NCBI GenBank assembly: GCA_963722305.1
Contig: CAVRKE010000002.1
Span: 40,566 to 104,565, forward strand
Reading direction: 5' to 3'
Origin: Candidatus Levyibacteriota bacterium
GTDB lineage: Bacteria; Patescibacteriota; Microgenomatia; Levybacterales; UBA12049
Length of the DNA: 64,000 nucleotides
The position numbers were made by a program, and so were the translations under genes. This document shows, one piece after another, positions 6,589-41,231 of the stretch (the first letter of the stretch is position 1; each line of letters opens with the position of its first letter). The notes below the pieces were generated by a model. It saw only the letters and a list, made by a program, of their open reading frames with translations, made no database searches and had not been told where the DNA came from.

Positions 6589-7290
6589 TTAAACTCCGGG
6601 GGCCGGATTAGAAGGCGGCGGTGTCGGCGATGTTTCCGCGGGAGCCGCTGTCGCTTCAGCCGGAGCTTCAGTTGCTTCCGGTTGAGCTTCTGCAGCAGTA
6701 GGTGAAGCGGCAGAAGGTTCACCACGAGTTATTGGTATCTCTGTACGAATCCCAATACGTGCCCTATCTTCATAACCTTTGATTATCCTTGCTAGAGTTT
6801 CCAAGGCTGCTCTCGCTTCAGGTGATTCTGGCATTCCATTGGCCTCTGTATCTGTGGTTTTATCAAGTACTTCTCCTGCCTCTGATTGACCTGCTTCTGT
6901 AGCTGACGTTGCTGCTGAAGCATCTGTGGCAATTGCTTGATTCATTCCATGCAAAAGATCAGCTGCTTCTTGAGTCTGATTCGCATCCGCGGTAACTGAT
7001 GCATTCATGTCGTGTAAAAGGGCAGTCGCTTCAGCTACTGGACCTCCGGAAGGTGTAGCCAACACTTGACCTGCTTCTCCAGGTTGTCCTAAGATTACAG
7101 GATTAACTCCGGGTTCTCCAGCCGCTGGTTGAAAAACCGACGTATCCGGTTGCCTTGCTCCTGATGCTGATTGTACTCCCTCTACTGGCGCAGGCGTAGC
7201 AGCAATTGGACTCACATCTGGTTGTTGCCCTACTCCTGTTGGTACTTCTGATGTTCCTCCTGGTCCTCCCATATAATATAGTATGAACAC
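6589..7290 (-). CDS. Pro/Ala/Thr/Gly-rich low-complexity protein (hypothetical)
   Basis: 233 aa with internal repeat LLHDMNASVTADA / LLHGMNQAIATDA. Visibly GC-richer than flanking DNA. Confidence 0.4.
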   Translation of the reverse strand: MFILYYMGGPGGTSEVPTGVGQQPDVSPIAATPAPVEGVQSASGARQPDTSVFQPAAGEPGVNPVILGQPGEAGQVLATPSGGPVAEATALLHDMNASVTADANQTQEAADLLHGMNQAIATDASAATSATEAGQSEAGEVLDKTTDTEANGMPESPEARAALETLARIIKGYEDRARIGIRTEIPITRGEPSAASPTAAEAQPEATEAPAEATAAPAETSPTPPPSNPAPGV

Positions 7291-7321: not shown

Positions 7322-8173
7322 GGGTAATCCCACCCTGTTGGTACAAAATCGTTAGAATATGATTATGTACCATTTAAAACAAGTACCTACGGATGCCCAG
7401 ATTAAAAAGTTTCTCAGAAGAACTGTTTTTGGTAGAAATATCTTCTGTCCAAAGTGCAAATCCTGGAATATTGTTCGCTTTGAAAAAAGATACAGATGTA
7501 GACAATGTCAGATTAAGTTCTCGCTGTTTTCCCATACCTGGCTTTGCAATGTGAAGATTCCTTTGCAGAGATTTTGGTTAATTCTCTGGTGCTGGACAAA
7601 ACAAATGCCGGTTAAACAGACTGAAGATCTAACTTCTTTGTCTGAGAAGGGAGTCAGACATTACTTTGACTTGTTCAGAGAACAATTACCAAGAGATCAG
7701 AGGCTTCTAGAGCATATTGTCCAGCTTGATGAGGCCTACTTTGGCAGATTTGGTAATACCGCACTTCTCATGGGAAAGGAGAGAGGAACCAGAAAGCTTG
7801 CTTATCAAATCCTCTCCTCTGATGCCCCAGCGAAGAAAGATGCAATTGATTTTGTTAGAACTTACGTTAAACCAGAGTCTCAACTAAATACAGATGGCTC
7901 TACTATTTACAAAAATATTGATAAGTATTATCCTCTATTCCATATGACAGACATTCACAAGAAATTTGAGTTTACCAACACCTCTGAAATTGAAGGAATG
8001 TTTGGCGTTTTAAGGACTTTTATCCGGAGGATGTACCACCATGTCAGTGAAGAAAAGCTTGAAGAATATGTCTGTGAATTTTACTGCAGATTTTCCAGAC
8101 CGGAAATGTTTAAATCTCCTTACCATTACTTGCAAAACACGCTACATGCTTTACCAACAGGGTAGGAGAACCC
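7322..8173 (+). mobile_element. IS1595-family insertion sequence (ISXO2-like), 852 bp, with 22-bp imperfect TIRs (GGGTAATCCCACCCTGTTGGTA / reverse complement of TACCAACAGGGTAGGAGAACCC, 19/22 identical) and 8-bp direct target duplication AAAAAATT (7314-7321 and 8174-8181)
   Basis: The TIRs and the target-site duplication were read directly from the sequence. An 8-bp duplication is characteristic of IS1595. Confidence 0.75.
7359..8165 (+). CDS. IS1595-family (ISXO2-like) DDE transposase
   Basis: N-terminal Zn-finger CPKCKS...RCRQC. DDE-region motifs QLDEAYFG, NTDGSTIYK, FTNTSEIEGMFGVLRTFIRR. Confidence 0.8.
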   Translation: MIMYHLKQVPTDAQIKKFLRRTVFGRNIFCPKCKSWNIVRFEKRYRCRQCQIKFSLFSHTWLCNVKIPLQRFWLILWCWTKQMPVKQTEDLTSLSEKGVRHYFDLFREQLPRDQRLLEHIVQLDEAYFGRFGNTALLMGKERGTRKLAYQILSSDAPAKKDAIDFVRTYVKPESQLNTDGSTIYKNIDKYYPLFHMTDIHKKFEFTNTSEIEGMFGVLRTFIRRMYHHVSEEKLEEYVCEFYCRFSRPEMFKSPYHYLQNTLHALPTG

Positions 8174-8276: not shown

Positions 8277-10655
8277 TCAGTCCACCGGTTCGGGAGGTGT
8301 GGCGTGAAGGACCGGATGCGGACTGATTCTTGGCTCGGGTTTTGGCTGAAGCGCTCTGGTTAAAGCCACATCCAAAACTTCATCCATGTGTTCGACAAAT
8401 ACAAATTTAAGTTCTTTAAGCACTTCTTTTGGCACATCTTCCAAATCTTTTTTATTATCTTTTGGCAAAATAATGGTTTTCAGCCCCGCCCGGTGCGCGG
8501 CAATCATTTTTTCTTTCACTCCGCCGATTTCCAAAACCCTGCCTCTAAGCGTTATTTCCCCGGTCATGCCGACAGTTCGGTTGACCGGAATTTTGGTTAA
8601 AGCCGAAGTAATGGCGGTCGTGATGGCGATACCGGCCGACGGCCCGTCTTTTGGCACTGCCCCTTCGGGCACATGCACATGAACGTCTAATTTTTGGTAG
8701 AATTTTTCATCCAACCCCAGTGCTTTAGCCCTGGCCCGAATATAACTTAGTGCTGCCTGGCAAGATTCTTTCATGACGTCGCCCAGTTGTCCGGTCAAAA
8801 GCAAGTTGCCTTTTCCGGGCATTAAAGCCACCTCTATAAATAGTATGTCTCCGCCGGCTTCGGTCCAGGCTAGTCCTGTTGACATGCCGATTTCATCCTT
8901 TTTTTCAACACTGGTGGAGCTGAACTTAACCGGCCCCAAAAACTTGGTGACATTATTTTTAGTCACCACTACTTTTTCCTTTTTGCCTTCGGCAACCTGT
9001 TTGGCCACTTTTCTAAGGATTGACGCCAGCTGTCGTTCTAAGGCTCTGACTCCCGCTTCTCTGGTGTAATGGTCGGCAACAAACCTGATGGCTTCGTCTT
9101 CAAATTCAACGTTGGTCGATTTAAGCCCGTGATTTTCCATTTGTTTTTTCAAAAGAAAATCTTTAGCAATCCGGAATTTTTCCTCCTGGGTGTAACCGGC
9201 AAAATTAATTATCTCCAAGCGGTCTCTTAAAGCCGGAGGAATGGTATCTAAAACATTGGCGGTAGTAATAAACATTACATCCGATAAATCAAACGGCACT
9301 TCCAGATAATGATCCGAGAAACCGAAATTTTGCTCCGGATCCAAGGCTTCCAATAGCGCCGAAGAAGGATCGCCCCGAAAATCTGCTCCGACCTTGTCGA
9401 TTTCATCCAACATGAAAACCGGATTTCTTGTTCCTGCATCTTTAATGCCTTGAATGATACGGCCGGGCAGTGCGCCCACATAGGTGCGTCGGTGTCCCCT
9501 AATCTCCGCCTCATCCCTAATTCCGCCAAGCGATACTTTGACAAATTTTCTGTCTAATGCTCTGGCGATTGATTTACCAATTGAGGTTTTGCCCACCCCC
9601 GGCGGCCCGACAAAACAGAGAATCGGTCCCTTCATTTTTCCGGACAGCTTATGCACCGCCAGGTACTCAACAATCCTTTCTTTGATTTTTTCCAAACCGT
9701 AATGGTCTTCGTCCAGAATTTTTTCTGCCTGCTTGATGTCTACCTTACTTTTACTCAACACACTCCAGGGAAGATCCAACAGCCAATCAAGATAGTTACG
9801 GATATAACCCGCCTCCGGATTAAACTGGTTCATCTGGGAAAGTTTGGTAATCTCTTTTTTCGCTTTTTCCTCGATGTCTTTGGGCATTTTTGCCTTTTTT
9901 AGCTTATCCGATAATTCCCTGGTTTCACTGTCCTCATCGGATTCACCTAACTCTTTTTCGATGGTCTTTAAGCGTTCCCGAAGCATCACTTCGCGGGCTC
10001 CCTTTTCAAATCTCTCCTGGGTTTTGGAAGCAATTTTTTTCTCCAGTTCCAGCACTTTTATTTCGCGGCTTAAAAGTTCGACTACTTTCTCCAAACGTTT
10101 CTTGACATCAATTTCTTCCAGCAGCTCCTGTCTTTCCGCGGGCCGAAGGTCTAAAACCGAAGCTACCAAATCCGCCAGCTGCGAAGGGGTATTTTCCGAC
10201 ATCACATTCATAAACACCAGGAAATCAACAAACTTACCTAAATTAATTGCCCGTTTAAATTCCGTCACCAAATGGTTTGTCAAGGCTTTGATTTCCGGCG
10301 TGTCGATAGCTTCTTCCAAAACCTCCTCAACTCTGGCCATTAGATACGGAGAATCTTCCATAAATTCCAAAATCTTGATTCTGGATAAGCCTTTAATCTG
10401 GGCGTTTATTTCGCCTTCCGATTTAATCATGCGCTCAATGTGCGATAATGTACCAACCGCATAGAGGTCGGAAGGTGATGGATCGTTTAATTTGGCATTC
10501 CTTTGCAACACGAAACCGACAATTCTTTCCTGGGAAAAAGACGACTCGAGAGCCGCCAAGCTCTTTGGCCTGCCGAAAGTCAGGACCGAATCGGTATTGG
10601 GGAAAATTATGCCATCTCTAATTGGGATGATTGGGACTATTTTTTCCATATTCAC
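8277..10655 (-). CDS. lon: ATP-dependent Lon protease
   Basis: Lon N-domain, AAA+ Walker A GPPGVGKTS, proteolytic domain with catalytic Ser in PKDGPSAGIAITTA. Likely GTG start at 10653-10655. Confidence 0.95.
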   Translation of the reverse strand: MNMEKIVPIIPIRDGIIFPNTDSVLTFGRPKSLAALESSFSQERIVGFVLQRNAKLNDPSPSDLYAVGTLSHIERMIKSEGEINAQIKGLSRIKILEFMEDSPYLMARVEEVLEEAIDTPEIKALTNHLVTEFKRAINLGKFVDFLVFMNVMSENTPSQLADLVASVLDLRPAERQELLEEIDVKKRLEKVVELLSREIKVLELEKKIASKTQERFEKGAREVMLRERLKTIEKELGESDEDSETRELSDKLKKAKMPKDIEEKAKKEITKLSQMNQFNPEAGYIRNYLDWLLDLPWSVLSKSKVDIKQAEKILDEDHYGLEKIKERIVEYLAVHKLSGKMKGPILCFVGPPGVGKTSIGKSIARALDRKFVKVSLGGIRDEAEIRGHRRTYVGALPGRIIQGIKDAGTRNPVFMLDEIDKVGADFRGDPSSALLEALDPEQNFGFSDHYLEVPFDLSDVMFITTANVLDTIPPALRDRLEIINFAGYTQEEKFRIAKDFLLKKQMENHGLKSTNVEFEDEAIRFVADHYTREAGVRALERQLASILRKVAKQVAEGKKEKVVVTKNNVTKFLGPVKFSSTSVEKKDEIGMSTGLAWTEAGGDILFIEVALMPGKGNLLLTGQLGDVMKESCQAALSYIRARAKALGLDEKFYQKLDVHVHVPEGAVPKDGPSAGIAITTAITSALTKIPVNRTVGMTGEITLRGRVLEIGGVKEKMIAAHRAGLKTIILPKDNKKDLEDVPKEVLKELKFVFVEHMDEVLDVALTRALQPKPEPRISPHPVLHATPPEPVD

Positions 10656-10665
10656 TTTGAACGTA

Positions 10666-10700
10666 TTAGCACTCTATCATATCAGTTGCTAGCTGTCAAG
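10666..10700 (-). promoter_or_regulatory. lon promoter region: TTGACA (reverse complement of 10694-10699), 17-nt spacer, TAGAGT; overlapped by a CIRCE-like element (TTAGCACTC-N9-AGTTGCTAG at 10666-10692; one half a perfect CIRCE half-site)
   Basis: Read from the sequence. CIRCE consensus is TTAGCACTC-N9-GAGTGCTAA. The second half is degenerate. Confidence 0.3.
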
Positions 10701-10830
10701 ACTTGTTTTAAGCCTTAGCAAACTGCCGTCACTGATATTACAACATGGAAAACTTAGGTAAAGCTGAAAAATAATGTTGGGGTTAACCCTGTTAAATGGT
10801 TGAACCAAAGCTCTGCTTTATTTAATGGGG

Positions 10831-10860
10831 TTGACACACTACAGGTAACGAAACTACAAT
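10831..10860 (+). promoter_or_regulatory. Sigma70-like promoter TTGACA (10831-10836), 18-nt spacer, TACAAT (10855-10860) for the gene at 10890
   Basis: Read from the sequence. Nearby palindromes GGGTTAACCC (10780-10789) and GGTTGAACC. Confidence 0.35.
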
Positions 10861-10889
10861 TAAGATAATGATTTATCAGGGGTTTTTAT

Positions 10890-12077
10890 ATGATTTATTT
10901 AAGTGATTTATTAAATAAAAAAGTTTATTTTAATCAAAAAGTGTTTGGAGAAATGGTCGATTTTGCCGTCTTACAAAGCTCGCCTAACCCCTCTGTTTCT
11001 AAAGTAGTCATCAAAAGACTTGGTAAGAAACTAACAATTTCTCCCTCTTTTCTCGCGATGAGAAAAAACGGTGCGCTTTTAACCGACGAAAAAGCACCAC
11101 TCCTCCCCTTCGACGAAGGGGATTTTTATTTAAATGAGGACCTTTTGGATAAACAGGTTATCGATACTAATGATAAACGCTTGGTCAGGGTTAACGACAT
11201 TGTTTTCGAAAGCAACGGCGAACTTAAGGTTATCGGCATTGATATCGGGGCAGCGGGACTGCTTAGAAGATTGGGCCTGGAGAAAATTATCAAGATTCCC
11301 CATAAAATTCTTCCCTGGCAAATGATTGAAGCTTTTGACTATCAAACCGGAAATATAAAAATCAGCTTAACTCAAGATAAACTAAACAATATGCACCCAA
11401 GTGAACTGGCGGATATTCTGGAAGACTTAGGGACCAAAGAAAGGCAGGGAGTGGTGGAAAGCCTGGAGGCGAAAAGAGCCGCCAGGGCCATCGAAAAAAC
11501 CGAAGAGAAAACCCAGGAAGCAATTTTAGAAGAATTGCCAAAAACTAACCTTAAAGATATTGTCGGCAAAATGCATGTTGCCAATTTAGCTAACATTTTT
11601 TATAAACTTAATCCCTTAAGAACCAGAGAGATGGTGGACCTCATGGACAAAGACAAGGCGGGCAAAGTGGAAAAATTGCTTGATTTTGGAGCTTACACTG
11701 CCGGCGGAGCAATGCGCACCGGATTTGTATCTTTAGATGGGAACACTACAGTCAAGGAAACCATTAACACTCTTTATAAGTTAGTCCCAAAGCCCGAAGC
11801 AATTGTGGTTACCAATGGCAACGGCAGGTTGGTTGGGACTATTTATACTAAAGATATTTTGGACAGCGATTCGCTAGCCGTTTTAAAAGATCTTGTTTCG
11901 GAGCGAAAATTTGTTTTTCCGGAAGCCGATTTTAACCAGGTAATCAGCCTTTTTGGCAGATATAACTTAAGAGCTCTACCGGTAGTGGATAAAGACAGAA
12001 AGCCGCTGGGCATTGTCACTGCCGGCATTGTCTTATCGAAGATTGAGGAAAGAACGCAGACTGATGAAATTATTTAA
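10890..12077 (+). CDS. Soluble MgtE-N-domain / CBS-pair protein with N-terminal PRC-barrel-like region (Mg2+-sensor-like, no TM domain)
   Basis: MgtE_N-like helical region (HPSELADILEDLGTKERQGVVESLEAKRAARAIEK ... LANIFYKLNPLRTREMVDLMD) followed by two CBS-like motifs. No MgtE membrane domain. Confidence 0.65.
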   Translation: MIYLSDLLNKKVYFNQKVFGEMVDFAVLQSSPNPSVSKVVIKRLGKKLTISPSFLAMRKNGALLTDEKAPLLPFDEGDFYLNEDLLDKQVIDTNDKRLVRVNDIVFESNGELKVIGIDIGAAGLLRRLGLEKIIKIPHKILPWQMIEAFDYQTGNIKISLTQDKLNNMHPSELADILEDLGTKERQGVVESLEAKRAARAIEKTEEKTQEAILEELPKTNLKDIVGKMHVANLANIFYKLNPLRTREMVDLMDKDKAGKVEKLLDFGAYTAGGAMRTGFVSLDGNTTVKETINTLYKLVPKPEAIVVTNGNGRLVGTIYTKDILDSDSLAVLKDLVSERKFVFPEADFNQVISLFGRYNLRALPVVDKDRKPLGIVTAGIVLSKIEERTQTDEII

Positions 12078-13335
12078 ATTAATTAAGAAAAGATTAATTT
12101 TCCTCCTTCCTATTATGGCTGTTATTGGACCCGGAATTATTGCCGGGAACGCCGATAATGACGCCGGAGGAATTACAACTTATTCGGTCGCGGGAGCCAA
12201 CTTCGGACTGTCGCTTTTATGGGTACTGCTTTTGACCACTTTTGCCTTAGCCATCACTCAGGAAATCGGGGCGCGCATGGGACTGGTCACAGGGAAAGGC
12301 TTGGCTTCAATTATCAGGGAAAAATTTGGCATTCGCTGGACCACTTTTGTGATGGCCTGTCTGTTTATCTCAAACATTGGCACTATTTCTGCCGAATTTG
12401 CCGGGGTTGCTACAGCCCTGAGCATTTTTCATATCTCGAAATTTATCTCCGTTCCAATCGCTATCGCTGCGATATTTTTGCTGGTCACAAGAGGCAATTT
12501 TAAAAAACTGGAAAGGCTTTTTTTACTAATGTCCGTTTTTTATATTTGCTACATCGTTTCGGCACTCCTTGCCCATCCTAATTTCGGATTGGCGTTAAAA
12601 AGCCTGGCAATGCCTGTCGGAATCAAATTGAATGGTGTCTACATTTTAACTTTAATGGCGGTGATCGGAACCACCATCACCCCCTGGGGACAGTTTTTTA
12701 TCCAAGATTATGTCGTTGATAAAAAACTGACAAAGAACGATTTAAAAATCGAAAGAGGCGACGTATTTGTAGGCAGTTTTTTTACCAATTTCATTTCCTT
12801 TTTCATTATCGTCGCCTGCGCCGCCACACTGTTTGCTAAAGGAATAAGAATTACCGATGCCAGTCAGGCAGCTTTAGCTTTGGTACCTTTAGCCGGGCAG
12901 TTTGCGGCGGCTTTGTTTGCTTTCGGATTTTTAAATGCATCCCTGTTTGGTGCCGCCATCGTCCCGGTTACCACCTCTTATGTTATAACCGAAGCTTTTG
13001 GTTTAGAGTCCGGTTTGAATTTTAAATTCAGAGAAGCTCCGGAGTTTTACGGACTATTCTTACTGCTGTTAATCCTTGGAGGGACAGTTGTATTACTGCC
13101 GTTTATTCCTCTAATTACAATCCTGGTTGTTACCCAGGCCATTAACGCCGCGCTTTTAATTCCGATCTTTATTTTCCTTTATATTGTGTCTAATGATAAA
13201 AAACTACTCGGGGAATACGTCAACGGCAAAATCGTCAATATTGTTTTGATTATTACTTTAATTCTAATTGCAGCTGCTTCCACTCTTTATGCAATTTCTT
13301 TCTTCGCCCCCAGCCTCTTCAATTTTTTCCACTAA
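12064..13335 (+). CDS. NRAMP-family divalent-cation transporter with non-canonical metal site (NRMT-like, putative Mg2+/Mn2+ transporter)
   Basis: TM1 motif GPGIIAGNADNDAGGITTYSVAGANFGLSLLW against canonical GPG...DPGN...LLW. TM6 reads GTTITPWGQFF in place of the A-x-x-MPH motif. Probable true start ATG 12064 (MKLFKLIKK), overlapping the upstream stop by 14 nt. The ORF track extends it to 12013. Confidence 0.7.
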   Translation: MKLFKLIKKRLIFLLPIMAVIGPGIIAGNADNDAGGITTYSVAGANFGLSLLWVLLLTTFALAITQEIGARMGLVTGKGLASIIREKFGIRWTTFVMACLFISNIGTISAEFAGVATALSIFHISKFISVPIAIAAIFLLVTRGNFKKLERLFLLMSVFYICYIVSALLAHPNFGLALKSLAMPVGIKLNGVYILTLMAVIGTTITPWGQFFIQDYVVDKKLTKNDLKIERGDVFVGSFFTNFISFFIIVACAATLFAKGIRITDASQAALALVPLAGQFAAALFAFGFLNASLFGAAIVPVTTSYVITEAFGLESGLNFKFREAPEFYGLFLLLLILGGTVVLLPFIPLITILVVTQAINAALLIPIFIFLYIVSNDKKLLGEYVNGKIVNIVLIITLILIAAASTLYAISFFAPSLFNFFH

Positions 13336-13427: not shown

Positions 13428-14324
13428 ATGAATATTAAAACCGGACTACATCACATTAGGCATACACGACCTCAGTGGTATAAACAATATCACGAATGGG
13501 AACCGCACGTCTTTTTGCACTGGACTGCCTTTATTATTTCTTCCATCATTATCCTTTTGGGTTTAACCAATGCAGTTTCCCAATTGCAGGTAAAAAAAGC
13601 CGGCGCCACCTCGTCGTCAACCACCTTAAGCCAAGACTTAACTTCAGGTACACTGACAATTAGTAATACCGGTGGCCAAACTTTAACTGCAGGAGCTGTT
13701 TCCACCAGCAGTCAACTAACCACCGGCAGCTTGGGAACAATTACTTTGGTTGACAACCGAGGAACCGGTGTTGGCTGGAGTGCAACCGCCACCTCAACAA
13801 ATTTTATAAAATATAATAATCCGGTGACAACCGGAGGAACAAATGATACTCTCAGCGTAGACAGTACCTCAACCTACGATAGTACCACCGGAGGAACTTA
13901 TACGGTTACCATTACCACCGGCGGATCGGTTGGAACGGCCAAGTTTGATGTCAGTGGATTGGAAACTGCAACCGGCGTCTCTACCGGTGCAAGTGTATCT
14001 GTGGGAACACGCGGATTGGTGCTTGATTTTGCCGCCGCCACTTATACTACCAGTGATTCATGGACTATCAGAGTTGATGTTATACCGGTTACCGGTTTAC
14101 AAATCACTCCGGGTACGTTAACCACTATTGCCGGTTCGTCTTCAAACGTTACTGCCGGATCTGTACATACCTTTACCGATACAGCCGATGCCACCGATTT
14201 AATTACTGCCTCATCCGGTTATGGAATGGGATCGTACTCAGTCGCCCCTGCTTTACAATTAACCATTCCCGCCAGCAGCTACGCAAATACCTATACGGCA
14301 ACTGTGGTTGAAACCGTTCTCTAA
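13428..14324 (+). CDS. WxL-like cell-surface protein (CscB-like)
   Basis: Signal/TM segment, Thr/Ser/Gly-rich core, motif DNRGTGVGWSATATSTNF and C-terminal YSVAPALQLTIPASSYANTYTATV resembling the two WxL motifs. Confidence 0.5.
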   Translation: MNIKTGLHHIRHTRPQWYKQYHEWEPHVFLHWTAFIISSIIILLGLTNAVSQLQVKKAGATSSSTTLSQDLTSGTLTISNTGGQTLTAGAVSTSSQLTTGSLGTITLVDNRGTGVGWSATATSTNFIKYNNPVTTGGTNDTLSVDSTSTYDSTTGGTYTVTITTGGSVGTAKFDVSGLETATGVSTGASVSVGTRGLVLDFAAATYTTSDSWTIRVDVIPVTGLQITPGTLTTIAGSSSNVTAGSVHTFTDTADATDLITASSGYGMGSYSVAPALQLTIPASSYANTYTATVVETVL

Positions 14325-14335
14325 AGATATTCATT

Positions 14336-15427
14336 ATGACTAACCTGCCTTCCATATTTAAAAAGTTTGTTTTTGGTCGAAACGTTCTTTTACCCCTCCT
14401 TTTTTTTGTTTTGACTTTTTTTTTGTTCGTTGTGCCGGTCTTAGCTGTAAGCTCACAAACTATTAGCGCCAACCCCACCAATCCATCGCCGTCGGACCCC
14501 AGATCAAAATCCTGGTTTATTTATTCTCTGCCGGCCGGCGTCACGAAAAAAGACACTGTTACTGTTGAAAATAACAGCAATCAACCGATTACCTTAAAAG
14601 TCTATGCGGCCGACTCATTAAAAACCAGCCAAGGTGGTTTTGCCCTCGCCAACGAAGACGCAGCAAAGAAAGGGTTAGGTTCATGGGTAAAATTAAGCGT
14701 TGCGGAAGTAACCCTCGGTCCGAATGAAGAAAGAAACATTCCTTTTACTATTTCTATCCCCGCGCAAACTCCAACGGGTGAATATTCCGGCGGAATAATT
14801 TTTCAAGAAACGCAGCCACAAAAATTTACTGGCGGCAACGGCGTTGGAATCAACGTTATTTCCCGAGTCGGAGTACGAATTTATGAAACAGTACCGGGAG
14901 TTAATCAACTAAGCTTGGCCGTTAAGGATTTTCGCTATTCGGTGGCGGACAACAATCTGATTTTTAGCTTTACGGTTGAAAATAAAGGCACAGTCTTTAT
15001 TTCACCAACGGGGACGCTGGAAGTGAAAGATATGATTGGACAAGTGATAAGCGATATACCGCTAGATAACATATTGGGTGTAGTCATACCCGGAGTACCC
15101 AGAACAATAGTCGTCCCCACACAAATTGCCTCACCGATATTTGGTTGGAATACGGCCAGTGTCGCCCTATATTACTCTCCAACCAAAACCGCCATGGCCA
15201 GCATTGTCTTTATGCCAAATCTATGGCCACTGTACATCATAGTTTTTCTAATTGTCTTATTTGTCCTCTACTTATTGCTGAGAAAAAAATTAGTCGGTGC
15301 TAAGGGTAAGCTTTTAACCAACAAGCCGTCAGCGAAAGTCCTACTCGGTGTCGGTGCTATTTTATTGGGGACGGTTATATTTAGTTATCTGATTGTTTAC
15401 CTCTTTGGTTTATTACTGACAAAATAA
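14336..15427 (+). CDS. DUF916-like cell-surface protein with C-terminal membrane anchor (CscA-like)
   Basis: Signal peptide. SWFIYSLPAGVTKKDTVTVENNSNQPITLKVYAAD and GEYSGGIIFQE match the DUF916 pattern. C-terminal TM anchor WPLYIIVFLIVLFVLYLLLRKK. Confidence 0.5.
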   Translation: MTNLPSIFKKFVFGRNVLLPLLFFVLTFFLFVVPVLAVSSQTISANPTNPSPSDPRSKSWFIYSLPAGVTKKDTVTVENNSNQPITLKVYAADSLKTSQGGFALANEDAAKKGLGSWVKLSVAEVTLGPNEERNIPFTISIPAQTPTGEYSGGIIFQETQPQKFTGGNGVGINVISRVGVRIYETVPGVNQLSLAVKDFRYSVADNNLIFSFTVENKGTVFISPTGTLEVKDMIGQVISDIPLDNILGVVIPGVPRTIVVPTQIASPIFGWNTASVALYYSPTKTAMASIVFMPNLWPLYIIVFLIVLFVLYLLLRKKLVGAKGKLLTNKPSAKVLLGVGAILLGTVIFSYLIVYLFGLLLTK

Positions 15428-15518
15428 TATCTGCCTTGCTTCTTTGGATGAGCGCTTCATATTCTCATATTTTTATACTACAATTAGATTGAAGCCTCTT
15501 TAATGGGGTTTTAACAAA

Positions 15519-18392
15519 ATGAAGTTTTGGACAAAATTTTGGCAGAAAAATAAAATCAGTTTTAAAAAACGCTTTGTTTATACCATCCTTCTAACCATCA
15601 TTTTCTTATTTTTAACTACGTCCAAGGCTTTTGCTACTACCTACAATTGCACCACCACTACCAGCGGCACTTGGAACTGGAATGTTGCCGCTGATTGGAC
15701 ATCGGGCACTTGCAACGGTACCTATCCCGGAGGGACCGGGGCACCGGATGTTTACAATGTCGCCATTAATTCTACCACTGCCACCACCATTAATCTGAAT
15801 GTTAATCCGGCAACCATCGGCACTATTACCATTATTGGCAACGGAGTTAGCCACACCATCAACTTTAACGGCCATACCATGACTACCAGCAGCACCACCA
15901 CCATCAATGCCCCAACAGCTGTCATGACCAATTCAATCTCGGTTGATAGCGGTACTTTTAATGCCGGCGGAAACGTGACAATTACCTCCGGCTCAGCCGC
16001 CACCAGGGTTTCCCAGCTCACTGTCTCGACCGGCAATATCAATATTAGCGGCAGCGTGACCTATGGCGGAACAGCAGCAGGAGCTAAATTAATAGTTTCA
16101 AGTGTTGGCAATATCAGTGCCACCAGTGTTGGCGCCAGCGGATATTTTAGCGCCACATCGTCAGGCACTTTAAAACTTACGGGAGCAGCGCCGGTTATTC
16201 AGGTCGGAGCAAATTATACTTATGCCAATTTAAATATGGCCGGATCCGGAACTGCTACTTTTTCCGCCAGCGGTGGGGCACTAAGCGGAACTCTGACTAT
16301 AAATTCCGGAACTTTAGATTTTGGCGCTAATGCCGTCACTGTTTCCGGCGCAACGGAAGTAACGGGTAGCGGAACAATTACTTTTTCATCAGCCACTAAT
16401 ACCAAGATTTTCGTCGGTCTTGTCACGTTAGACTCGGGCAGCATTTGGAATAATTCCGGCAATAGCGCGGTCACTTTTGAAGGAGGACTGACGAACAACG
16501 GCGCGGCCACACTGACGATGGGAACAGGCACGCAAACTTTTAGCACCAATGCCCAAGCCATCGGCGGGACTAGCGGAATCTCTATTCCGAGCATGACTGT
16601 GACAGGCATTGTGGTCACCAATAATTTTACTAGTAGCGCCGTCTCCTTAACCGTTACTACTACTCTTGCGGGAACAGGGACTTTAAGGCAAGCTGCCAAC
16701 GGCTATTTAACTATTTCCGGCAATACCACTATTACCACCTTGGATTGCACGACCAATACTCCCAATACGGTTGAGTATAACGGCTCAGGCGCACAAACCG
16801 TCAAGGGCACTACCTATTATTATTTGCTGCATTCAGGCGCCGGCAACGGCACGATTGGCGCAAATACGACCGTGAATAATAATCTAGACGTCACCGGAGG
16901 GACCTTTACTATCGGAGCATACACAACCTCCGTCAGCGGCACTACTACTATTAGTAGCGGTGCTACCCTAGCTATTACCTCAACTACCGGCACGAAAACC
17001 TTTACCAATCTGACTATTTCCGATGGCGGTACATTCAGTTTTAGCGCCGCAGAGGCAATTACTATGAGCGGAAATTTAACCATCAATGGCGCCGGAGCAA
17101 TTAGCGGTACCACCGGTCTTTGGACCTTTCAGGCTGCTTCCGGCGGAACAATCGGCGGCACCACCACCGGAACCACCACCCTGGGCTCTGCCACCTTTAC
17201 CACCGCCTATTCGGTCGGAATTCCAATCACCTCAACCGGCACTTTAACTGTCACCGGAGTGACTTTAACCAATAATTCTACTCTGACGGCCTCAGCTGCT
17301 TTATCCGGAACATCAGGCACGCTTTTGCAGGGTGCTAATTCAACCTTAATTTTAGGCACAACCAGTGGAATCACCACCCTCACTGCCAACGCCAGTCCAA
17401 ACTTAGTGAAATATATCGGCACGTCCACACAAACGATTAAAGTTCCCTCATCAAGCTACAATAATTTGGAATATGCCGGATCAAGTACGGGCACTTTGGG
17501 AGGCAGTTTTACGGTCGACGGAAATTTTACCATTGACAGTGGCGGCACGGTTGCCGCATCCACTTATAATCTAAGCATTGGCGGAAATTTTTCCAATAGC
17601 GGGACGTTTACGGCCAACACCGGCACGGTGACCTTTGTGAATGCGGCCTTAACCTCTACTATTTCAAATCCTTCCTCCGGTACAACTTTTAATAATTTTA
17701 CCGTCAATACTGCCGGTAAAGCTTTAGTTTTTGACCACACTGACCAGACAACTATCGGCGGAACTTTGACGTTAAACGGGCAGGCCTGCGGCACCATGAT
17801 TACTCTGTCGTCCGATCTTGGCGGCTCTCAGTTTAGCATTAATGCTACCGGCACAAAAAGCGTCACTTATGTCAACGTCACGGATTCCAAGGCCATCACC
17901 GCAATTTCGGTTACCAATAGTAAAGGTTCTAACTATACCAATTGGACTTTTGGTTCGACGACCTGCGGCAGTTTAACTTTAGCCAATCAATCTACTACCA
18001 CTTTAACTGCGGTGACACTTAGCTATCCGGCGCCAAATAGTACCGGCAGTTTAGGACTGGTTACGGCCACCGATACCAGAGGCACCAATGTCGGCTGGAG
18101 CCTAACAGCCACCTCCAGTAATTTTACCGTCAGCTCACATACCATCAATGTCACCAATTTTACCATTAACCCCAACAACTCAACCTTAACTGTAGTTTCC
18201 GGTTCGGGTACCGGGGTTACTGCCGGCACTGCGCATACTTTTACCGGCACCTCCGACCCGGCCACCGTAATTACTACTTCAGGCGAAAACGGTACCGGAC
18301 AATATACGATTAACCCCGATTTAAGCCTGACTATTCCGGCCGGCTCTTATACGGGCAGCTATACTGCTACCATTACTCTGACTTTACAGTAA
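15519..18392 (+). CDS. Large Thr/Gly/Ser-rich surface protein with C-terminal WxL-like domain (CscC-like)
   Basis: 957 aa, N-terminal anchor/signal, long beta-helix-like T/G/S/N repeats, C-terminal DTRGTNVGWSLTATSSNF ... LSLTIPAGSYTGSYTATI. Confidence 0.5.
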   Translation: MKFWTKFWQKNKISFKKRFVYTILLTIIFLFLTTSKAFATTYNCTTTTSGTWNWNVAADWTSGTCNGTYPGGTGAPDVYNVAINSTTATTINLNVNPATIGTITIIGNGVSHTINFNGHTMTTSSTTTINAPTAVMTNSISVDSGTFNAGGNVTITSGSAATRVSQLTVSTGNINISGSVTYGGTAAGAKLIVSSVGNISATSVGASGYFSATSSGTLKLTGAAPVIQVGANYTYANLNMAGSGTATFSASGGALSGTLTINSGTLDFGANAVTVSGATEVTGSGTITFSSATNTKIFVGLVTLDSGSIWNNSGNSAVTFEGGLTNNGAATLTMGTGTQTFSTNAQAIGGTSGISIPSMTVTGIVVTNNFTSSAVSLTVTTTLAGTGTLRQAANGYLTISGNTTITTLDCTTNTPNTVEYNGSGAQTVKGTTYYYLLHSGAGNGTIGANTTVNNNLDVTGGTFTIGAYTTSVSGTTTISSGATLAITSTTGTKTFTNLTISDGGTFSFSAAEAITMSGNLTINGAGAISGTTGLWTFQAASGGTIGGTTTGTTTLGSATFTTAYSVGIPITSTGTLTVTGVTLTNNSTLTASAALSGTSGTLLQGANSTLILGTTSGITTLTANASPNLVKYIGTSTQTIKVPSSSYNNLEYAGSSTGTLGGSFTVDGNFTIDSGGTVAASTYNLSIGGNFSNSGTFTANTGTVTFVNAALTSTISNPSSGTTFNNFTVNTAGKALVFDHTDQTTIGGTLTLNGQACGTMITLSSDLGGSQFSINATGTKSVTYVNVTDSKAITAISVTNSKGSNYTNWTFGSTTCGSLTLANQSTTTLTAVTLSYPAPNSTGSLGLVTATDTRGTNVGWSLTATSSNFTVSSHTINVTNFTINPNNSTLTVVSGSGTGVTAGTAHTFTGTSDPATVITTSGENGTGQYTINPDLSLTIPAGSYTGSYTATITLTLQ

Positions 18393-18533
18393 ACAAAACT
18401 CTACAATCTACCCAGTTTCCAAAGGACTTTTTTTCACAAAGTGATTGCATTTACAACTTGTTTATGAAAAAATATATATAAGCTGTTATGCATACTAATC
18501 TAAATAGAAAAGCACTTATTCGTTACAATACCG

Positions 18534-19454
18534 ATGAATAGTCCGAAACCAAGCCTTCACAAGCTTATCTATCACCACTTAAGATATACCAGACCACAAT
18601 GGTATAGGGATTACCACAAGTGGAAACACGTTGATACCCTGCATTGGCTGACGCTTATTTTTTCCTCCTTTGCAATTGTGGTCGGATTTATGAACGCCTT
18701 ATTGTTAATACAACAGTCTCCCTTGAATTCTACTTATGCCGCTTCCGGAACAACCACTATCAGTCAGCAAGTTAACGCCGGAACGCTCAATATCAGTACC
18801 AATACCAGTTCTACCTTAACGGCCGTGACTGTCAACGCCACCTCCAGCCAATCTTCTACCGGTAACCTTGGCACATTAACTGTTACCGATAACCGGGGTT
18901 CGGGTGTCGGCTGGTCTTCAACCGCCACCAGTAGCGACTTCACCTTTATTAACGCGGCGGTAAAAGTGTCCGGCTCAAATAGTACGGTCACTTCCGGAGG
19001 AACCTATACTAATTCAACCGCCGGCACTTATACGATTACCATTACTACCGGCGGAGCGGTTGGGGTGGCCAAATTTAGCGTAGCGGGCTTAGAATCCGCC
19101 TCCAACCAGACTACCGGCACAGGAGTAGCTATTGGCACCAGAGGCGTAACCGCGACTTTTGGTACCGCCACCTACGCACTTAGCGATTCCTGGACGATTC
19201 GGGTGGATACAATACCGGTAACTAATTTAATGCTTACTCCCAATACTTTTACCACCGTCGCCGGTTCCTCAACCGGTGTTAGTAACGGAACCGCGCATAC
19301 TTTTACCACCACTTCAGACCCGGCAACTATCATTACCGCCTCCTCGGGCAACGGAATGGGCTCTTATTCGGATAATCCGGCCCTACAGCTGACTGTTCCG
19401 GCTGCATCTTATGCAAATTCTTATACGGCAACCATTACCGAAACCGTCAATTAA
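18534..19454 (+). CDS. WxL-like cell-surface protein (CscB-like paralogue)
   Basis: Paralogue of the 13428 gene: DNRGSGVGWSSTATSSDF and ALQLTVPAASYANSYTATI. Confidence 0.5.
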   Translation: MNSPKPSLHKLIYHHLRYTRPQWYRDYHKWKHVDTLHWLTLIFSSFAIVVGFMNALLLIQQSPLNSTYAASGTTTISQQVNAGTLNISTNTSSTLTAVTVNATSSQSSTGNLGTLTVTDNRGSGVGWSSTATSSDFTFINAAVKVSGSNSTVTSGGTYTNSTAGTYTITITTGGAVGVAKFSVAGLESASNQTTGTGVAIGTRGVTATFGTATYALSDSWTIRVDTIPVTNLMLTPNTFTTVAGSSTGVSNGTAHTFTTTSDPATIITASSGNGMGSYSDNPALQLTVPAASYANSYTATITETVN

Positions 19455-19458
19455 AAAT

Positions 19459-21051
19459 ATGCTTAAATTACTTTCCAGATTTAAGAAACAATTCGTAATC
19501 GGCTTGTTTTTGTTTTCTGCCTTAGTTTTTTTCTTCAGTGTCAGTCGTACTTTTGCCGCCGAGGGAAACCTGGGGGCATATCCGACCAATTTTGACGAAA
19601 GCAATCCGAAAACCAAATCCTGGTTTATTTACCAATTAAAACCGGGCGAGTCAAAAGACGACAGCATCACAGTTGTTAATAATTCCGATAAAGAATTGAG
19701 CGTTAGAGTATATGCTGTTGATGCCACCACCACCAGTGACGGGGCCTTTGCCCTTCTCAATGAAAACCAAAGGCAGAATGATGTCGGCAGCTGGGTCAGT
19801 ATCTCCAAGGATGTCATTACCATTGCACCGAGAAGCCGCATCGATGTGCCCTTTACTATTTCTATTCCCAAATACGTTACTGTCGGAGATCACGCCGGCG
19901 GGATTATTGTTCAAGAAGCAACCGCTCCTACAGCCGCTAATGCAGGGATGGCCTTGAATATTGTCTCCAGAGTCGGCACCAGGATTTACGAAACAGTACC
20001 GGGAGACAAAGTGATTAAGCTGGACCTGACCGGTTTTGCTTACAAAATTATCGACACGCATCTGGTTTTTACTTTTAATTTGGTGAATCAAGGCAACGTG
20101 ATTTTAAATCCAACCGGAGACTTGGAAGTTAAAGACTATACCGGTAAAACGATTGATAAGATTACCCTCGGCAATTTGGGTTCGGTTTTTCCCGGAAAAC
20201 CGACCGCTATCACCGTCGCATCCACCCAGACCGCTCCTATATTTGGGCAATATACGGCAGTGGCAACTGTCAATTATTCTCCGATCGAGTCTATTTCTAA
20301 GAGCTTAACGTTCTTTATTTACGTCAACGACTGGCGCTACGCCTCAATAATTCCACTGGCGCTATTGGCACTCTTGATTTTATTTAGAGTGCGTAAAATT
20401 ATTCCTTCCTGGTTTAGAAACCGCCGCAGATTTACCGACACCGTAATTCCCGCGCCCCAACCGGCTCCGGCCATTGCGAAAAGCGTGGGAAAGAAACACC
20501 AGAAAGAACCGCTTATTTTAGCCGAGGAGCAAGCTATACCGGAAAATTACGTCGACAGTTTATTTGTGGCGCACCACCTTAAACTACTGGTTATTCTAAA
20601 CGCAATTGTTATCGTAGTCCTTAGTATTTTGTTCGGATTTATCTTGCAATCTTCGGTAATTACGAAAATAACTTCGGCTGCAAACGGTAATAATCCTTCC
20701 CTACCCGCTTCTAATGTTAATCCCCAGCCGACGGCTGTTCCGCCTCCGGCTGCACCCCCAGCCTCTGCCCCGGTGCCGACCGTAGCAAAAGCGGATATGC
20801 AAATTCAAATCTTAAACGGAGGCGGTGTGATTGGCGCTGCCAAAGCTTTAGCCGACAAACTAACCGCGGCCGGTTTTAACATCACCCAAATCGGCAATGC
20901 CGCTACCGAATCGGCCCAAACAATTGTTGAATATCCTGATCTGCAAAGTTCGGGAACAAACCTGTTAATCAATGCCTTGGAACCCGATTATTCAAATGTG
21001 GTAGAACAGTCCACCGATTCCTCTTATTTTGTAATCATTATCGGGAGATAA
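19459..21051 (+). CDS. DUF916-like surface protein with TM segment and C-terminal LytR_C-type domain
   Basis: KSWFIYQLKPGESKDDSITVVNNSDKELSVRVYAVD (DUF916-like), TM helix, Pro-rich linker, C-terminal MQIQILNGGGVIGAAKALADKLTAAGFNITQIGNA...IVEY (LytR_C-like). Probable start ATG 19459 (MLKLLSRF) 4 nt after the upstream stop. The ORF track gives 19411. Confidence 0.5.
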   Translation: MLKLLSRFKKQFVIGLFLFSALVFFFSVSRTFAAEGNLGAYPTNFDESNPKTKSWFIYQLKPGESKDDSITVVNNSDKELSVRVYAVDATTTSDGAFALLNENQRQNDVGSWVSISKDVITIAPRSRIDVPFTISIPKYVTVGDHAGGIIVQEATAPTAANAGMALNIVSRVGTRIYETVPGDKVIKLDLTGFAYKIIDTHLVFTFNLVNQGNVILNPTGDLEVKDYTGKTIDKITLGNLGSVFPGKPTAITVASTQTAPIFGQYTAVATVNYSPIESISKSLTFFIYVNDWRYASIIPLALLALLILFRVRKIIPSWFRNRRRFTDTVIPAPQPAPAIAKSVGKKHQKEPLILAEEQAIPENYVDSLFVAHHLKLLVILNAIVIVVLSILFGFILQSSVITKITSAANGNNPSLPASNVNPQPTAVPPPAAPPASAPVPTVAKADMQIQILNGGGVIGAAKALADKLTAAGFNITQIGNAATESAQTIVEYPDLQSSGTNLLINALEPDYSNVVEQSTDSSYFVIIIGR

Positions 21052-21116
21052 TAAAAATTGCTGATTAGAAAGTTTTTCTTTTACCCGAAGCCTCTTAAAC
21101 TTTATAAAATAACGGC

Positions 21117-21647
21117 TTATATTTGCGGTGTGGCAACGGCAACAAACCTCTTGCTATCCAAAAACCCGGTGCAGGTATAAATGGTGATTCTACTGTCTTT
21201 TGTTTGCGCTAAAATATGCGTCTCATTGGGGTCGACTACCGAAGTAAACTGAATCACAAACGTTCTTGTTTGCCCGTTATTTAGAACAATTTGAATCGTT
21301 TGCCCCGGTTTCATATTAGTCAATTTACCCAGCAGACTTATCCAATTATGTCCGTATAAAATGCTGTTGCCTCTGGCGCCCGGAACCGGAGAGGATAAAA
21401 GATAAGAAATACCCTTATCGGTTGTTTCCCATTGCCCGTTGGTAATTTTTGCACCATAGATTCCTTCGTCTATTTTTTGTGACGGGATAATTATCCTCAC
21501 GGGAATTAAATTTGAACTCGAAGCACTAACTACTTTTAGATTGTTGAATTCAATTGTTTTTGGACTGTAACGCTGAAAAACCAAGTAGGCACCAAAAAGT
21601 AGTAATAATAGGCCTGAGAAAATTAGAAATTTAGAAGAGAGGCTCAT
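21117..21647 (-). CDS. Sortase (small, class A/E-like)
   Basis: N-terminal TM anchor. Catalytic His in ILYGHNW, Cys in RITIYTCTG (TLxTC-type), Arg in KRFVAVA. Confidence 0.75.
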   Translation of the reverse strand: MSLSSKFLIFSGLLLLLFGAYLVFQRYSPKTIEFNNLKVVSASSSNLIPVRIIIPSQKIDEGIYGAKITNGQWETTDKGISYLLSSPVPGARGNSILYGHNWISLLGKLTNMKPGQTIQIVLNNGQTRTFVIQFTSVVDPNETHILAQTKDSRITIYTCTGFLDSKRFVAVATPQI

Positions 21648-40814: not shown

Positions 40815-41231
40815 ATGAAAAAACTTTTAATAACAGGAGCAGCCGCAGGACTTTTATTAGTTTCTGCAGCAGCAGCTTTTGCTAAACCACCTATGCCAGG
40901 AACATCCAACATGGCATTTGTTACCAGCAACGTTAGCGCATCTTCCGTAACAGGAGGAAATAGTACCAGCGCAACTTGGGGTAGCAATAGAGTTACAACG
41001 GGAAATGCCTACTCAACAGCAGGAGCAGGTACTCTTGCTAATACAAACGTCGGAGGCGGAAACGCATCCAATACTGCGTTTGTTCTCAGCAATGTTGGTG
41101 CAGGTTCCTCAACAGGAGGAAACTCGACAGTCGCATCTGGGTTTGGTAGCAATACCGTTACAACGGGAAATGCCCACTCAACAGCAGGAGCGCTGACCGT
41201 GGTTAACACCAACCTGTCATTCGGTAGATAA
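40815..41231 (+). CDS. Small secreted protein made of two ~50-aa N/T/S/G-rich repeats (novel repeat family)
   Basis: Signal peptide. Repeat units NMAFVTSNVSASSVTGGNSTSATWGSNRVTTGNAYSTAGAGTLANTN and NTAFVLSNVGAGSSTGGNSTVASGFGSNTVTTGNAHSTAGALTVVNTN. Confidence 0.5.
   Translation: MKKLLITGAAAGLLLVSAAAAFAKPPMPGTSNMAFVTSNVSASSVTGGNSTSATWGSNRVTTGNAYSTAGAGTLANTNVGGGNASNTAFVLSNVGAGSSTGGNSTVASGFGSNTVTTGNAHSTAGALTVVNTNLSFGR

Follow-up and report, generated by a model that had tools for sequence, protein, structure and literature searches.

The locus described here encodes a soluble protein resembling the cytosolic part of MgtE, located directly upstream of an NRAMP-type transporter, and raises the question of whether the two proteins act together as a split Mg2+ sensor/transporter system, as proposed in an earlier note on this DNA. 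NRMTs constitute a fourth class of prokaryotic Mg2+ importers. The window, i.e. the whole stretch of 64,000 nucleotides that was analysed, derives from a CPR/Levybacteria genome; the features are compiled in Table 1.

The NRMT-type transporter and its operon

In the open-reading-frame list, ORF2 starts at TTG 12013; the start common to its relatives is ATG 12064, from which the residues are numbered. Pfam PF01566 (Nramp) matched ORF2 with E = 1.6e-83 over profile positions 1-356 of 357, NCBIfam Nramp_1 scored 61.7 bits (cut-off 50), the MntH model reached 107.6, far under its cut-off of 430, and about ten Kyte–Doolittle hydrophobic segments were present. The best PDB match was EleNRMT (7QIA, 3.7e-97; ~43% identity over 388 columns), followed by canonical Nramps at 6.7e-26 or weaker. 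Upon alignment, D33-A-G-G36 coincided with DPGN of 10ky ("iDPGNwa") and DraNramp ("mDPGNfa") and with DAGG of EleNRMT, and T203-T-I-T-P-W208 with A-V-V-M-P-H of 10ky and T-T-I-A-P-W of EleNRMT. Residue T203 is the equivalent of T224, a Thr required by EleNRMT for Mg2+, and the Gln corresponding to Q379 of EleNRMT is kept. Among 47 aligned sequences, comprising that from the window and 46 diverse representatives, 7 had TxxTPW.

The NRMT clade was published in 2022 together with its signature, DxxG-TxxA/T, and is set against the H+-coupled canonical family in the abstract of that study (PMC8806188). ORF2 combines the SLC11 fold, DxxG and TxxA/T with a greater closeness to EleNRMT than to canonical Nramps and, judged by its sequence, is an SLC11 transporter of the NRMT clade. 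Transport by EleNRMT is reportedly proton-uncoupled, according to the study of that protein. By analogy, the substrate of ORF2 is most likely hydrated Mg2+, and also Mn2+, imported likewise without proton coupling, which suggests Mg2+/Mn2+ uptake via an NRMT in Levybacteria. The earlier note had proposed that the two genes overlap translationally and that ORF2 has an NRAMP fold with an altered metal site and is related to NRMTs; each point was borne out, the residue assignment at the metal site by the alignment with EleNRMT, 10ky and DraNramp.

The start of ORF2 lies inside the end of ORF1 (...ACTGATGAAATTATTTAA), and this 14-nt overlap is repeated in the close relatives L001, L002 and L003, in which different genes follow the pair. 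The two frames are predicted to be translationally coupled, by which the partner would be made in step with the transporter. Transcription as an operon from a promoter closely upstream is very probable, the site itself being a consensus match (11 of 12 positions); if it is real, the leader of ~30 nt would be too short for an M-box riboswitch. Rfam yielded zero matches at gathering score in the whole window and, at E<=10 within 10500-11000, two chance-level matches only and no M-box (RF00380), while the same search detected an M-box 5' of the pair in three related loci (L019, L051, L079). The IS1595 element was found to have no further copy within the window.

Table 1 Features of the locus (coordinates refer to the window)
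Feature	Coordinates	Strand	Description and basis
Promoter-like site TTGACA-18-TACAAT	10831..10860	+	~30 nt 5' of ORF1 start; consensus match only
ORF1	10890..12077	+	395 aa; soluble PRC-PRC-MgtE_N-CBS-CBS; "MgtE-like fragment" partner of NRMT
ORF1 PRC barrel-like domain 1	10890..11114	+	aa 1-75; AF2 fold and Pfam PRC matches in homologues
ORF1 PRC-barrel 2 (PRC2)	11124..11372	+	aa 79-161; Pfam PF05239, 1.2e-08
ORF1 MgtE_N helical domain	11391..11687	+	aa 168-266; Pfam PF03448, 1.2e-16
ORF1 CBS pair	11703..12059	+	aa ~272-390; Pfam PF00571 x2, 2.8e-16
ORF1/ORF2 overlap	12064..12077	+	14 nt; ATG 12064 to TAA 12075-12077; translational-coupling arrangement
ORF2	12064..13335	+	423 aa; NRMT-type SLC11 transporter; Pfam Nramp PF01566
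Alpha-helix 1 metal-site motif D33-A-G-G36	12160..12171	+	canonical DPGN; alignment
Alpha-helix 6 metal-site motif T203-T-I-T-P-W208	12670..12687	+	canonical A-x-x-M-P-H; alignment

Domains and ligand positions of the soluble partner

The maximum 19-residue Kyte–Doolittle mean of ORF1 was 1.17, i.e. no hydrophobic or transmembrane segment is present. The full-length mgtE model TIGR00400 gave 87.5 bits (cut-off 232.75) and was covered at profile positions 19-258 of 450 only, and the C terminus (aa 395) follows directly after CBS2, where the MgtE plug helix would start. Because a hydrophobic segment is absent and the TIGR00400 match is partial and below cut-off, with neither pore nor plug helix, ORF1 is not an MgtE. 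Sequence comparison with the MgtE cytosolic domain 2yvy gave 1.1e-19. The AF2 monomer was of moderate quality (pLDDT 71.8, pTM 0.37) and was therefore used for domain folds only; the top PDB matches of this model in Foldseek were all MgtE cytosolic domains. The MgtE_N domain and CBS pair without a pore had been recognised correctly in the earlier note, which missed ~160 aa of PRC barrels at the N terminus. Residues 1-75 are all-beta in the AF2 model (pLDDT about 67-89), and in eight distant homologues Pfam PRC matches fell on the region aligned to aa ~3-73; PRC-barrel 2 was poorly modelled (pLDDT <50 at 80-102 and 145-162). PRC barrels were found in every partner homologue tested, and the partner family HMM spans positions 1-385. 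The most conserved residues of the partner family (63 sequences) are those of PRC2, namely D87, Q89, D92, R100, V101 and N102, along with D103, D118, G123, R126, R127 and W143; since PRC2 is the most conserved part of the partner, it is a candidate docking surface. The exact ORF1 sequence was looked up in public assemblies and gave no record.

In Thermus thermophilus MgtE (TtMgtE), the acidic ligands of the cytosolic ions Mg4-Mg7 are E59, D91, D95, D226, D247 and D250 (PMC5882242). These were mapped onto R199, A231, N235, N359, I380 and S383 of ORF1, with agreement between two independent alignments, one of them the HMMER pairwise alignment; the equivalent of D246 is G379. Hence none of the six ligand positions is acidic in ORF1. 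At least four of the six scored acidic positions are kept in 48 of 62 NRMT-linked homologues; all six are acidic in, for example, L021 (Methanobacteriaceae) and L019 (Thermoleophilia). The MgtE_N+CBS part of ORF1 has a pI of 5.64 and a net charge of -3, compared with a median pI of 4.33 and a net charge of about -35 in the partner family. The ATP site of the MgtE CBS pair comprises Y170, R187, D188, N203 and F227 (PMC5529423). In ORF1, the R187/D188 equivalents are K321 and D322, invariant in the clade, N203 is replaced by Ser and the adenine-stacking F227 by Leu, and Y170 lies opposite a gap in the alignment; given the changes at F227 and Y170, ATP binding by ORF1, too, is putative at most.

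Conservation of the pair and role of the partner

The search for related loci was seeded by a 12-sequence alignment. A partner was located within 4 kb in 62 of the 76 informative NRMT loci, in 54 of them immediately upstream and on the same strand, and 14 loci, those without a neighbouring partner being mostly from Acidobacteriaceae/Terriglobales, had no partner nearby. Paired loci occur in Acidobacteriota, Chloroflexota, Syntrophia, Actinomycetota, Bacillota, Nitrospirota and Patescibacteria as well as, among the archaea, in Methanobacteria and Nanoarchaeota; Syntrophus buswellii (L024) and a Methanobacterium are examples of carriers that can be cultured. As the 14-nt overlap is kept in close relatives and the pair is conserved across phyla, the pairing is not due to chance. 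Two apparent natural CBS+Nramp fusions (P0140, P0270) were set aside as frameshift or assembly artefacts, since their junctions were of low complexity or CBS2 was cut straight into TM1. Extra Pfam domains were sought in longer Nramp matches (P0204, P0213, P0246 and others), and none were found.

Thus, the synteny expected from the earlier note exists, and its statement that the arrangement had not been described does not stand: in PMC4072509 (Shin et al. 2014, PLoS Genet), the MgtE cytoplasmic domain was reported to be encoded beside most NrmT genes, in what the authors termed "mgtE-nramp operons" (Fig. S5), and cytoplasmic feedback regulation was speculated upon. The pairing is therefore already known since 2014 and common across bacteria and archaea, the present locus being an ordinary further example; that it belongs to the known mgtE-like/nrmT operons is close to certain. 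Three details appear to be new, namely the N-terminal PRC barrels of the partner, which hold its most conserved residues, the loss of all six acidic positions in the CPR copy, and the absence of an M-box at the CPR locus. A search of the accessible literature for PRC barrels together with MgtE, or for later work on the NRMT partner, retrieved nothing.

ORF1 is not a transporter and would most likely be a cytosolic accessory subunit; we judge it to be probably, though by no means surely, an accessory regulator of the NRMT. A regulator is plausible given the proton-uncoupled transport reported for EleNRMT. It is plausible also because CorA and MgtE, the other routes of Mg2+ entry, each have cytosolic gating domains (introduction of PMC4072509). 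We infer that ORF1 docks on the cytoplasmic face of the NRMT via its tandem PRC barrels and that the MgtE_N/CBS module, probably a dimer as in MgtE, acts as a ligand-dependent clamp that would throttle uptake. In most of the partner family, the ligand could plausibly be cytosolic Mg2+, since these members have kept the acidic residues that in MgtE bridge the N and CBS domains. For ORF1 itself the term "Mg2+ sensor" is weaker than for the family, because the six aligned acidic ligand positions are lost; of the split Mg2+ sensor/transporter proposed earlier, the pair thus holds and the sensing of Mg2+ is weakened. The module of ORF1 may respond to another signal, e.g. an adenine nucleotide bound by the CBS pair, in which K321/D322 are invariant, or it may be a constitutive partner.

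Several observations count against a regulator. When A. capsulatum Acp2976 and Acp2977 were produced together in B. subtilis, the rescue of Mg2+ transport did not improve further, and C. acetobutylicum NrmTs carry Mg2+ without the partner (PMC4072509). The 14 partnerless loci point in the same direction, as do, in this copy, the non-acidic ligand positions, the net charge of -3 of the MgtE_N+CBS part and the missing M-box.

The alternative that ORF2 is mainly an importer of Mn2+ or another transition metal, with a partner that reacts to Mn2+ or serves a function not connected with Mg2+, was proposed for the A. capsulatum pair by Shin et al. (PMC4072509), and we regard it as rather unlikely here, though to be taken seriously. 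A. capsulatum NrmT, which lacks an M-box and has an MgtE-like neighbour, restored Mn2+ uptake completely and that of Mg2+ only weakly (PMC4072509), and EleNRMT carries Mn2+ besides Mg2+ (PMC8806188). An M-box precedes only a subset of mgtE-like/nrmT pairs and is taken as a marker of the Mg2+-specific members (PMC4072509); its absence at the locus and the lost acidic positions of ORF1 fit the Mn2+ alternative as well. On the other hand, ORF2 carries the full DxxG-TxxT signature, including the Thr required for Mg2+ in EleNRMT, and is devoid of the Met, a soft ligand favouring transition metals.

It is improbable that ORF1 serves as a cytosolic metal chaperone or buffer, taking ions from the transporter instead of gating it, an alternative raised in PMC4072509. 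The extreme acidity of most partner-family members would suit cation binding, but the CPR copy is not acidic and yet is strongly conserved in its clade and coupled to the transporter, and with free Mg2+ in the millimolar range a chaperone seems unnecessary. An action of ORF1 on some other target, e.g. gene expression or the ribosome via the PRC barrels, with mere co-regulation with the transporter, is likewise improbable: PRC barrels do occur in RimM, to which ORF1 has a weak match below cut-off (TIGR02273, 16.3 vs 66.2 bits), and some homologues are annotated "predicted transcriptional regulator" or "YlmC with PRC-barrel", but these labels are automatic annotation, Pfam detected no DNA-binding domain in ORF1, and the close linkage of the partner gene, immediately upstream and often overlapping, persists in both bacteria and archaea and is NRMT-specific. 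That the pair forms a split Mg2+ sensor/transporter system not described before can practically be discarded, for although the pair is real and conserved and the function of the partner has been probed by one negative experiment, the arrangement and the feedback idea were published in 2014 (PMC4072509), the NRMT clade and signature followed in 2022 (PMC8806188), and the putative Mg2+ ligands are absent from ORF1.

Returning to the accessory regulator, a more specific version is offered tentatively, and we hold it to be doubtful: the partner may gate NRMT uniporters as a detachable subunit that docks by the near-invariant PRC2 surface. The copies of reduced genomes, having shed the acidic residues in CPR bacteria, a Nanoarchaeote and Omnitrophota/WOR-3, might then be rewired to a different signal, e.g. 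adenine nucleotides, or be constitutive. If this were true, MgtE gating would act in trans on a LeuT-fold carrier to which MgtE is not related, and the ligand would have changed in particular lineages.

Comparison with known systems

The locus raises no new question and sharpens the existing one on the role of the NRMT partner: the PRC barrels are now a candidate docking surface, and CPR bacteria and some other small-genome lineages, in which the partner is kept and the presumed Mg2+ ligands are gone, provide natural controls for Mg2+ sensing.

The closest precedents are the operons of Shin et al. (C. acetobutylicum Ca_c0685; A. capsulatum Acp2976-Acp2977), in which, as here, a gene for MgtE N and CBS domains lies directly 5' of nrmT on the same strand. 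The A. capsulatum pair also shares the lack of an M-box with the CPR locus, whereas in C. acetobutylicum an M-box controls the operon and the partner is encoded by two separate genes. The CPR locus differs from these operons in its host, in the 14-nt overlap and in the lost acidic ligand positions; the N-terminal PRC barrels of the partner are not mentioned in the accessible text of Shin et al. (PMC4072509).

EleNRMT from Eggerthella lenta (7QIA, 7QIC, 7QJI, 7QJJ) belongs to the same clade as ORF2 and has the same fold. In both proteins, helix 1 reads D-A-G-G and helix 6 T-T-I-x-P-W, and the Gln of helix 10 is conserved; the Met-equivalent position is Thr in ORF2 and Ala in EleNRMT, both of which are permitted by the consensus. 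In T. thermophilus MgtE (2YVX, 2ZY9, 2YVY), the Mg2+/ATP-sensing cytosolic gating module is homologous to MgtE_N+CBS of ORF1. Compared with MgtE, ORF1 has no plug helix or five-helix transmembrane pore, bears the PRC barrels as an N-terminal addition, and is non-acidic at all equivalents of E59, D91, D95, D246, D247 and D250. Canonical NRAMP/MntH proteins (DraNramp, ScaDMT, EcoDMT) have the SLC11 LeuT-type fold and the universal helix-1 Asp in common with ORF2; at the metal/proton site, their Asn is replaced in ORF2 by Gly, Ala by Thr, Met by Thr and His by Trp.

Gene pair and domain content

ORF1, encoding the MgtE-like soluble partner, and ORF2, encoding the NRMT-type (NRAMP-related) transporter, lie on the same strand. 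ORF2 most plausibly starts at the ATG at 12064 rather than at the mechanically listed TTG at 12013, which gives a 14-nt overlap with the ORF1 stop (...ATGAAATTATTTAA); the identical overlap was present in the called genes of the close relatives L001, L002 and L003 (L handles denote NRMT loci in other genomes), bearing out the translational overlap described in the earlier note.

ORF2 is a full-length Nramp-family protein (Pfam, 1.6e-83). Using HMMER, D33-A-G-G36 was aligned with the canonical Nramp motif DPGN and with DAGG in EleNRMT (Eggerthella lenta NRMT, 7QIA), and T203-T-I-T-P-W208 with A-V-V-M-P-H of the canonical Nramp 10ky and T-T-I-A-P-W of EleNRMT, in agreement with the metal-site motifs previously read from the sequence. 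The assignment to the NRMTs likewise held, as the signature DxxG-TxxA/T, taken from Ramanadane et al. 2022 (PMC8806188), was matched and EleNRMT was the top PDB match (3.7e-97, approximately 43% identity over 388 columns), with canonical Nramps at 6.7e-26 or weaker. In a clade alignment of 46 diverse full-length representatives and the window protein (n = 47), DxxG was found in 34 sequences and TxxTPW in 7.

ORF1 had been read as an MgtE_N domain plus CBS pair lacking the pore. This was upheld by Pfam and by the full-length mgtE model, of which only the cytosolic part was matched (profile positions 19–258 of 450; 87.5 bits, far under the cut-off of 232.75), and no hydrophobic segment was found in ORF1; the N-terminal ~160 residues, containing PRC barrels, had been overlooked. 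MgtE cytosolic domains were the closest solved relatives both by sequence (2yvy, 1.1e-19) and by fold (Foldseek; the AF2 model used was moderate, with a pLDDT of 71.8), and the N-terminal ~160 residues were all-beta in this model. Since Pfam matched the second barrel (PRC2) in ORF1 itself and the first (PRC1) in the aligned region of eight distant homologues, the family carries a tandem pair of PRC-barrel-like domains.

Features of the window and of NRMT loci elsewhere
Feature	Position	Strand	Remark
Unannotated ORF	6589-7290	-	233 aa
IS1595-family transposase	7359-8165	+	DDE_Tnp_IS1595 + Zn_ribbon_IS1595
Promoter-like TTGACA-18-TACAAT	10831-10860		consensus match only
ORF1 and ORF2 together	10890-13335	+
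ORF1	10890-12077	+	395 aa
PRC-barrel (PRC2)	ORF1 aa 79-161		Pfam 1.2e-08
MgtE_N	ORF1 aa 168-266		Pfam 1.2e-16
CBS motifs, two	ORF1		Pfam 2.8e-16
Secreted/surface protein cluster	13428-21647		directly 3' of NRMT gene
Thr/Ser/Gly-rich protein	13428-14324		no Pfam match
WxLIP_PGBD protein	14336-15427
Thr/Ser/Gly-rich protein	15519-18392		957 aa, no Pfam match
WxL-domain protein	18534-19454
WxLIP_PGBD protein	19411-21051		with LytR_C domain
Sortase	21117-21647	-
Imperfect direct repeat	40903-41026 and 41065-41191		~125 bp, 80% identity, within ORF 40815-41231
M-box (RF00380)	L019:2476-2646		Thermoleophilia, directly 5' of MgtE-like gene
M-box (RF00380)	L051:2135-2297		Bacillota, directly 5' of MgtE-like gene
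M-box (RF00380)	L079:1734-1904		Coriobacteriia, directly 5' of MgtE-like gene
Low-acidity partner	L063:2734-3999		Nanoarchaeote

Synteny, regulation and neighbourhood

In close relatives, source-labelled Levybacteria/Levyibacteriota or Patescibacteria, the order Lon(-), ORF1(+), NRMT(+) was kept while the genes 3' of the pair varied. NRMT loci were then collected from one genome per species (80 loci in a wide range of phyla, Methanobacteria and one Nanoarchaeote among them), and partners were sought in their six-frame ORFs with an ORF1-family HMM. The partner was immediately upstream on the same strand (gap ≤150 nt) at 54 loci, upstream on that strand with a larger gap at 5, downstream on the same strand at 1 and on the opposite strand at 2; 14 loci had none within the 4-kb flank, and 4 had too little upstream DNA to judge. 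A partner thus lay within 4 kb at 62/76 informative loci, and the pairing is conserved across phyla. Among the upstream same-strand pairs, 24/59 overlapped or were ~20 nt apart at most; since each NRMT start is an estimate based on the HMM alignment, the gap lengths are approximate. Partners matched the ORF1-family HMM over ~1–385; the PRC barrels are therefore general to the partner family.

The partner-less loci included L028, L039, L048, L067, L071, L073, L074, L077, L078 and L080 (Acidobacteriaceae/Terriglobales and relatives), L080 carrying two tandem NRMT genes with no MgtE-like gene within 4 kb. At L041, a second, divergent Nramp was located on the opposite strand.

An M-box riboswitch (108–143 bits) was found 5' of the pair in 3/17 loci tested (L019, L051 and L079, from MAGs), which carries the link between M-box and nrmT reported by Shin et al. 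into Actinomycetota. No riboswitch was matched by Rfam at the window locus, where the promoter-like site would leave a ~30-nt leader before ORF1; the 64-kb window contained neither tRNA genes nor any Rfam family at gathering score.

The IS1595 transposase and the 233-aa ORF sit between a PMT_2 glycosyltransferase gene and lon. Because these two genes directly adjoin in the relative L002, the IS1595 element looks like an insertion specific to the window genome; no second copy was found in the window. A sortase gene lies just 3' of the pair in L002 as well. WxL clusters are known mainly from Firmicutes, and their presence in a CPR genome may be worth attention. The direct repeat is probably an internal protein repeat.

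Ligand residues of the partner

The cytosolic sites of Thermus thermophilus MgtE comprise E59 (Mg7), D91/D247 (Mg4), D95 (Mg6) and D226/D250 (Mg5) (PMC5882242); MgtE orthologues conserve the sites Mg4, Mg5 and Mg7 (PMC10200709). By two independent, agreeing alignments (HMMER pairwise; MAFFT against a 63-sequence family alignment), E59, D91, D95, D226, D247 and D250 correspond to R199, A231, N235, N359, I380 and S383 of ORF1, and D246 to G379. With E59, D91, D95, D246, D247 and D250 as scoring set, 0/6 positions were acidic in ORF1, and these positions were non-acidic or variable across 31 close relatives. Among the 62 partners elsewhere, all six were kept in 22, five in nine and four in 17, the relatives L004 and L016 keeping 0 and 1, respectively.

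The MgtE_N and CBS part of ORF1 has a pI of 5.64 and a net charge of -3, the most acidic family members reaching approximately -35 to -40. Other low-acidity partners, mostly from small-genome lineages (Patescibacteria L004, L005, L010 and L016, Nanoarchaeote L063, Omnitrophota L082, WOR-3 L055), are the family's least acidic (pI 4.9–9.6 vs. a median of 4.33) and have lost some or all acidic residues aligned to the MgtE Mg2+ ligands; this loss may have been independent in CPR and DPANN. The ATP site defined for the MgtE CBS pair (PMC5529423) is retained in part: K321 and D322 are invariant in the clade, but Leu stands in place of F227 and Y170 aligns to a gap. The family's most conserved residues are located in PRC2 (D87, Q89, D92, R100, V101, N102, D103, D118, G123, R126, R127 and W143; 93–100% identity each, 63 aligned sequences).

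Proposed function and comparison with mgtE-nramp operons

The coupled two-gene unit pairs an SLC11 transporter bearing the NRMT signature with a soluble protein of PRC-PRC-MgtE_N-CBS architecture; it is conserved across bacteria and archaea and at times lies under a Mg2+ riboswitch. By analogy with EleNRMT, ORF2 would import Mg2+/Mn2+; a mainly Mn2+ substrate is a rival reading. Shin et al. 2014 (PLoS Genet, PMC4072509), who coined the name NrmT, showed Mg2+ transport by the C. acetobutylicum proteins. ORF1 is probably a stoichiometric cytosolic subunit that would dock via its PRC barrels, its MgtE-type N/CBS clamp curbing uptake at high cytosolic ligand. In most of the family this ligand is plausibly Mg2+; the case for Mg2+ in the CPR copy is weak, a nucleotide ligand or a constitutive role being as likely. 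Counting against a gating subunit are one negative co-expression experiment, performed with the A. capsulatum pair (PMC4072509), and the transport competence of NrmT alone. A chaperone or buffer is a rival role for the partner, and Shin et al. themselves speculated on cytoplasmic feedback regulation or a chaperone (PMC4072509); in a further rival reading the PRC barrels would act on an unrelated target.

The observation of the earlier note is confirmed and its interpretation partly supported. Its claim that the arrangement was undescribed is wrong, since 'mgtE-nramp operons' were reported by Shin et al. 2014 (Fig. S5; PMC4072509). Literature searches of incomplete coverage returned no later work on the NRMT partner and no papers joining PRC-barrel and MgtE. 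A known operon type gains a further member here, from a CPR bacterium, and the analysis adds the universal PRC barrels, the quantified synteny and the loss of acidity from the sensor in CPR and other lineages with small genomes.
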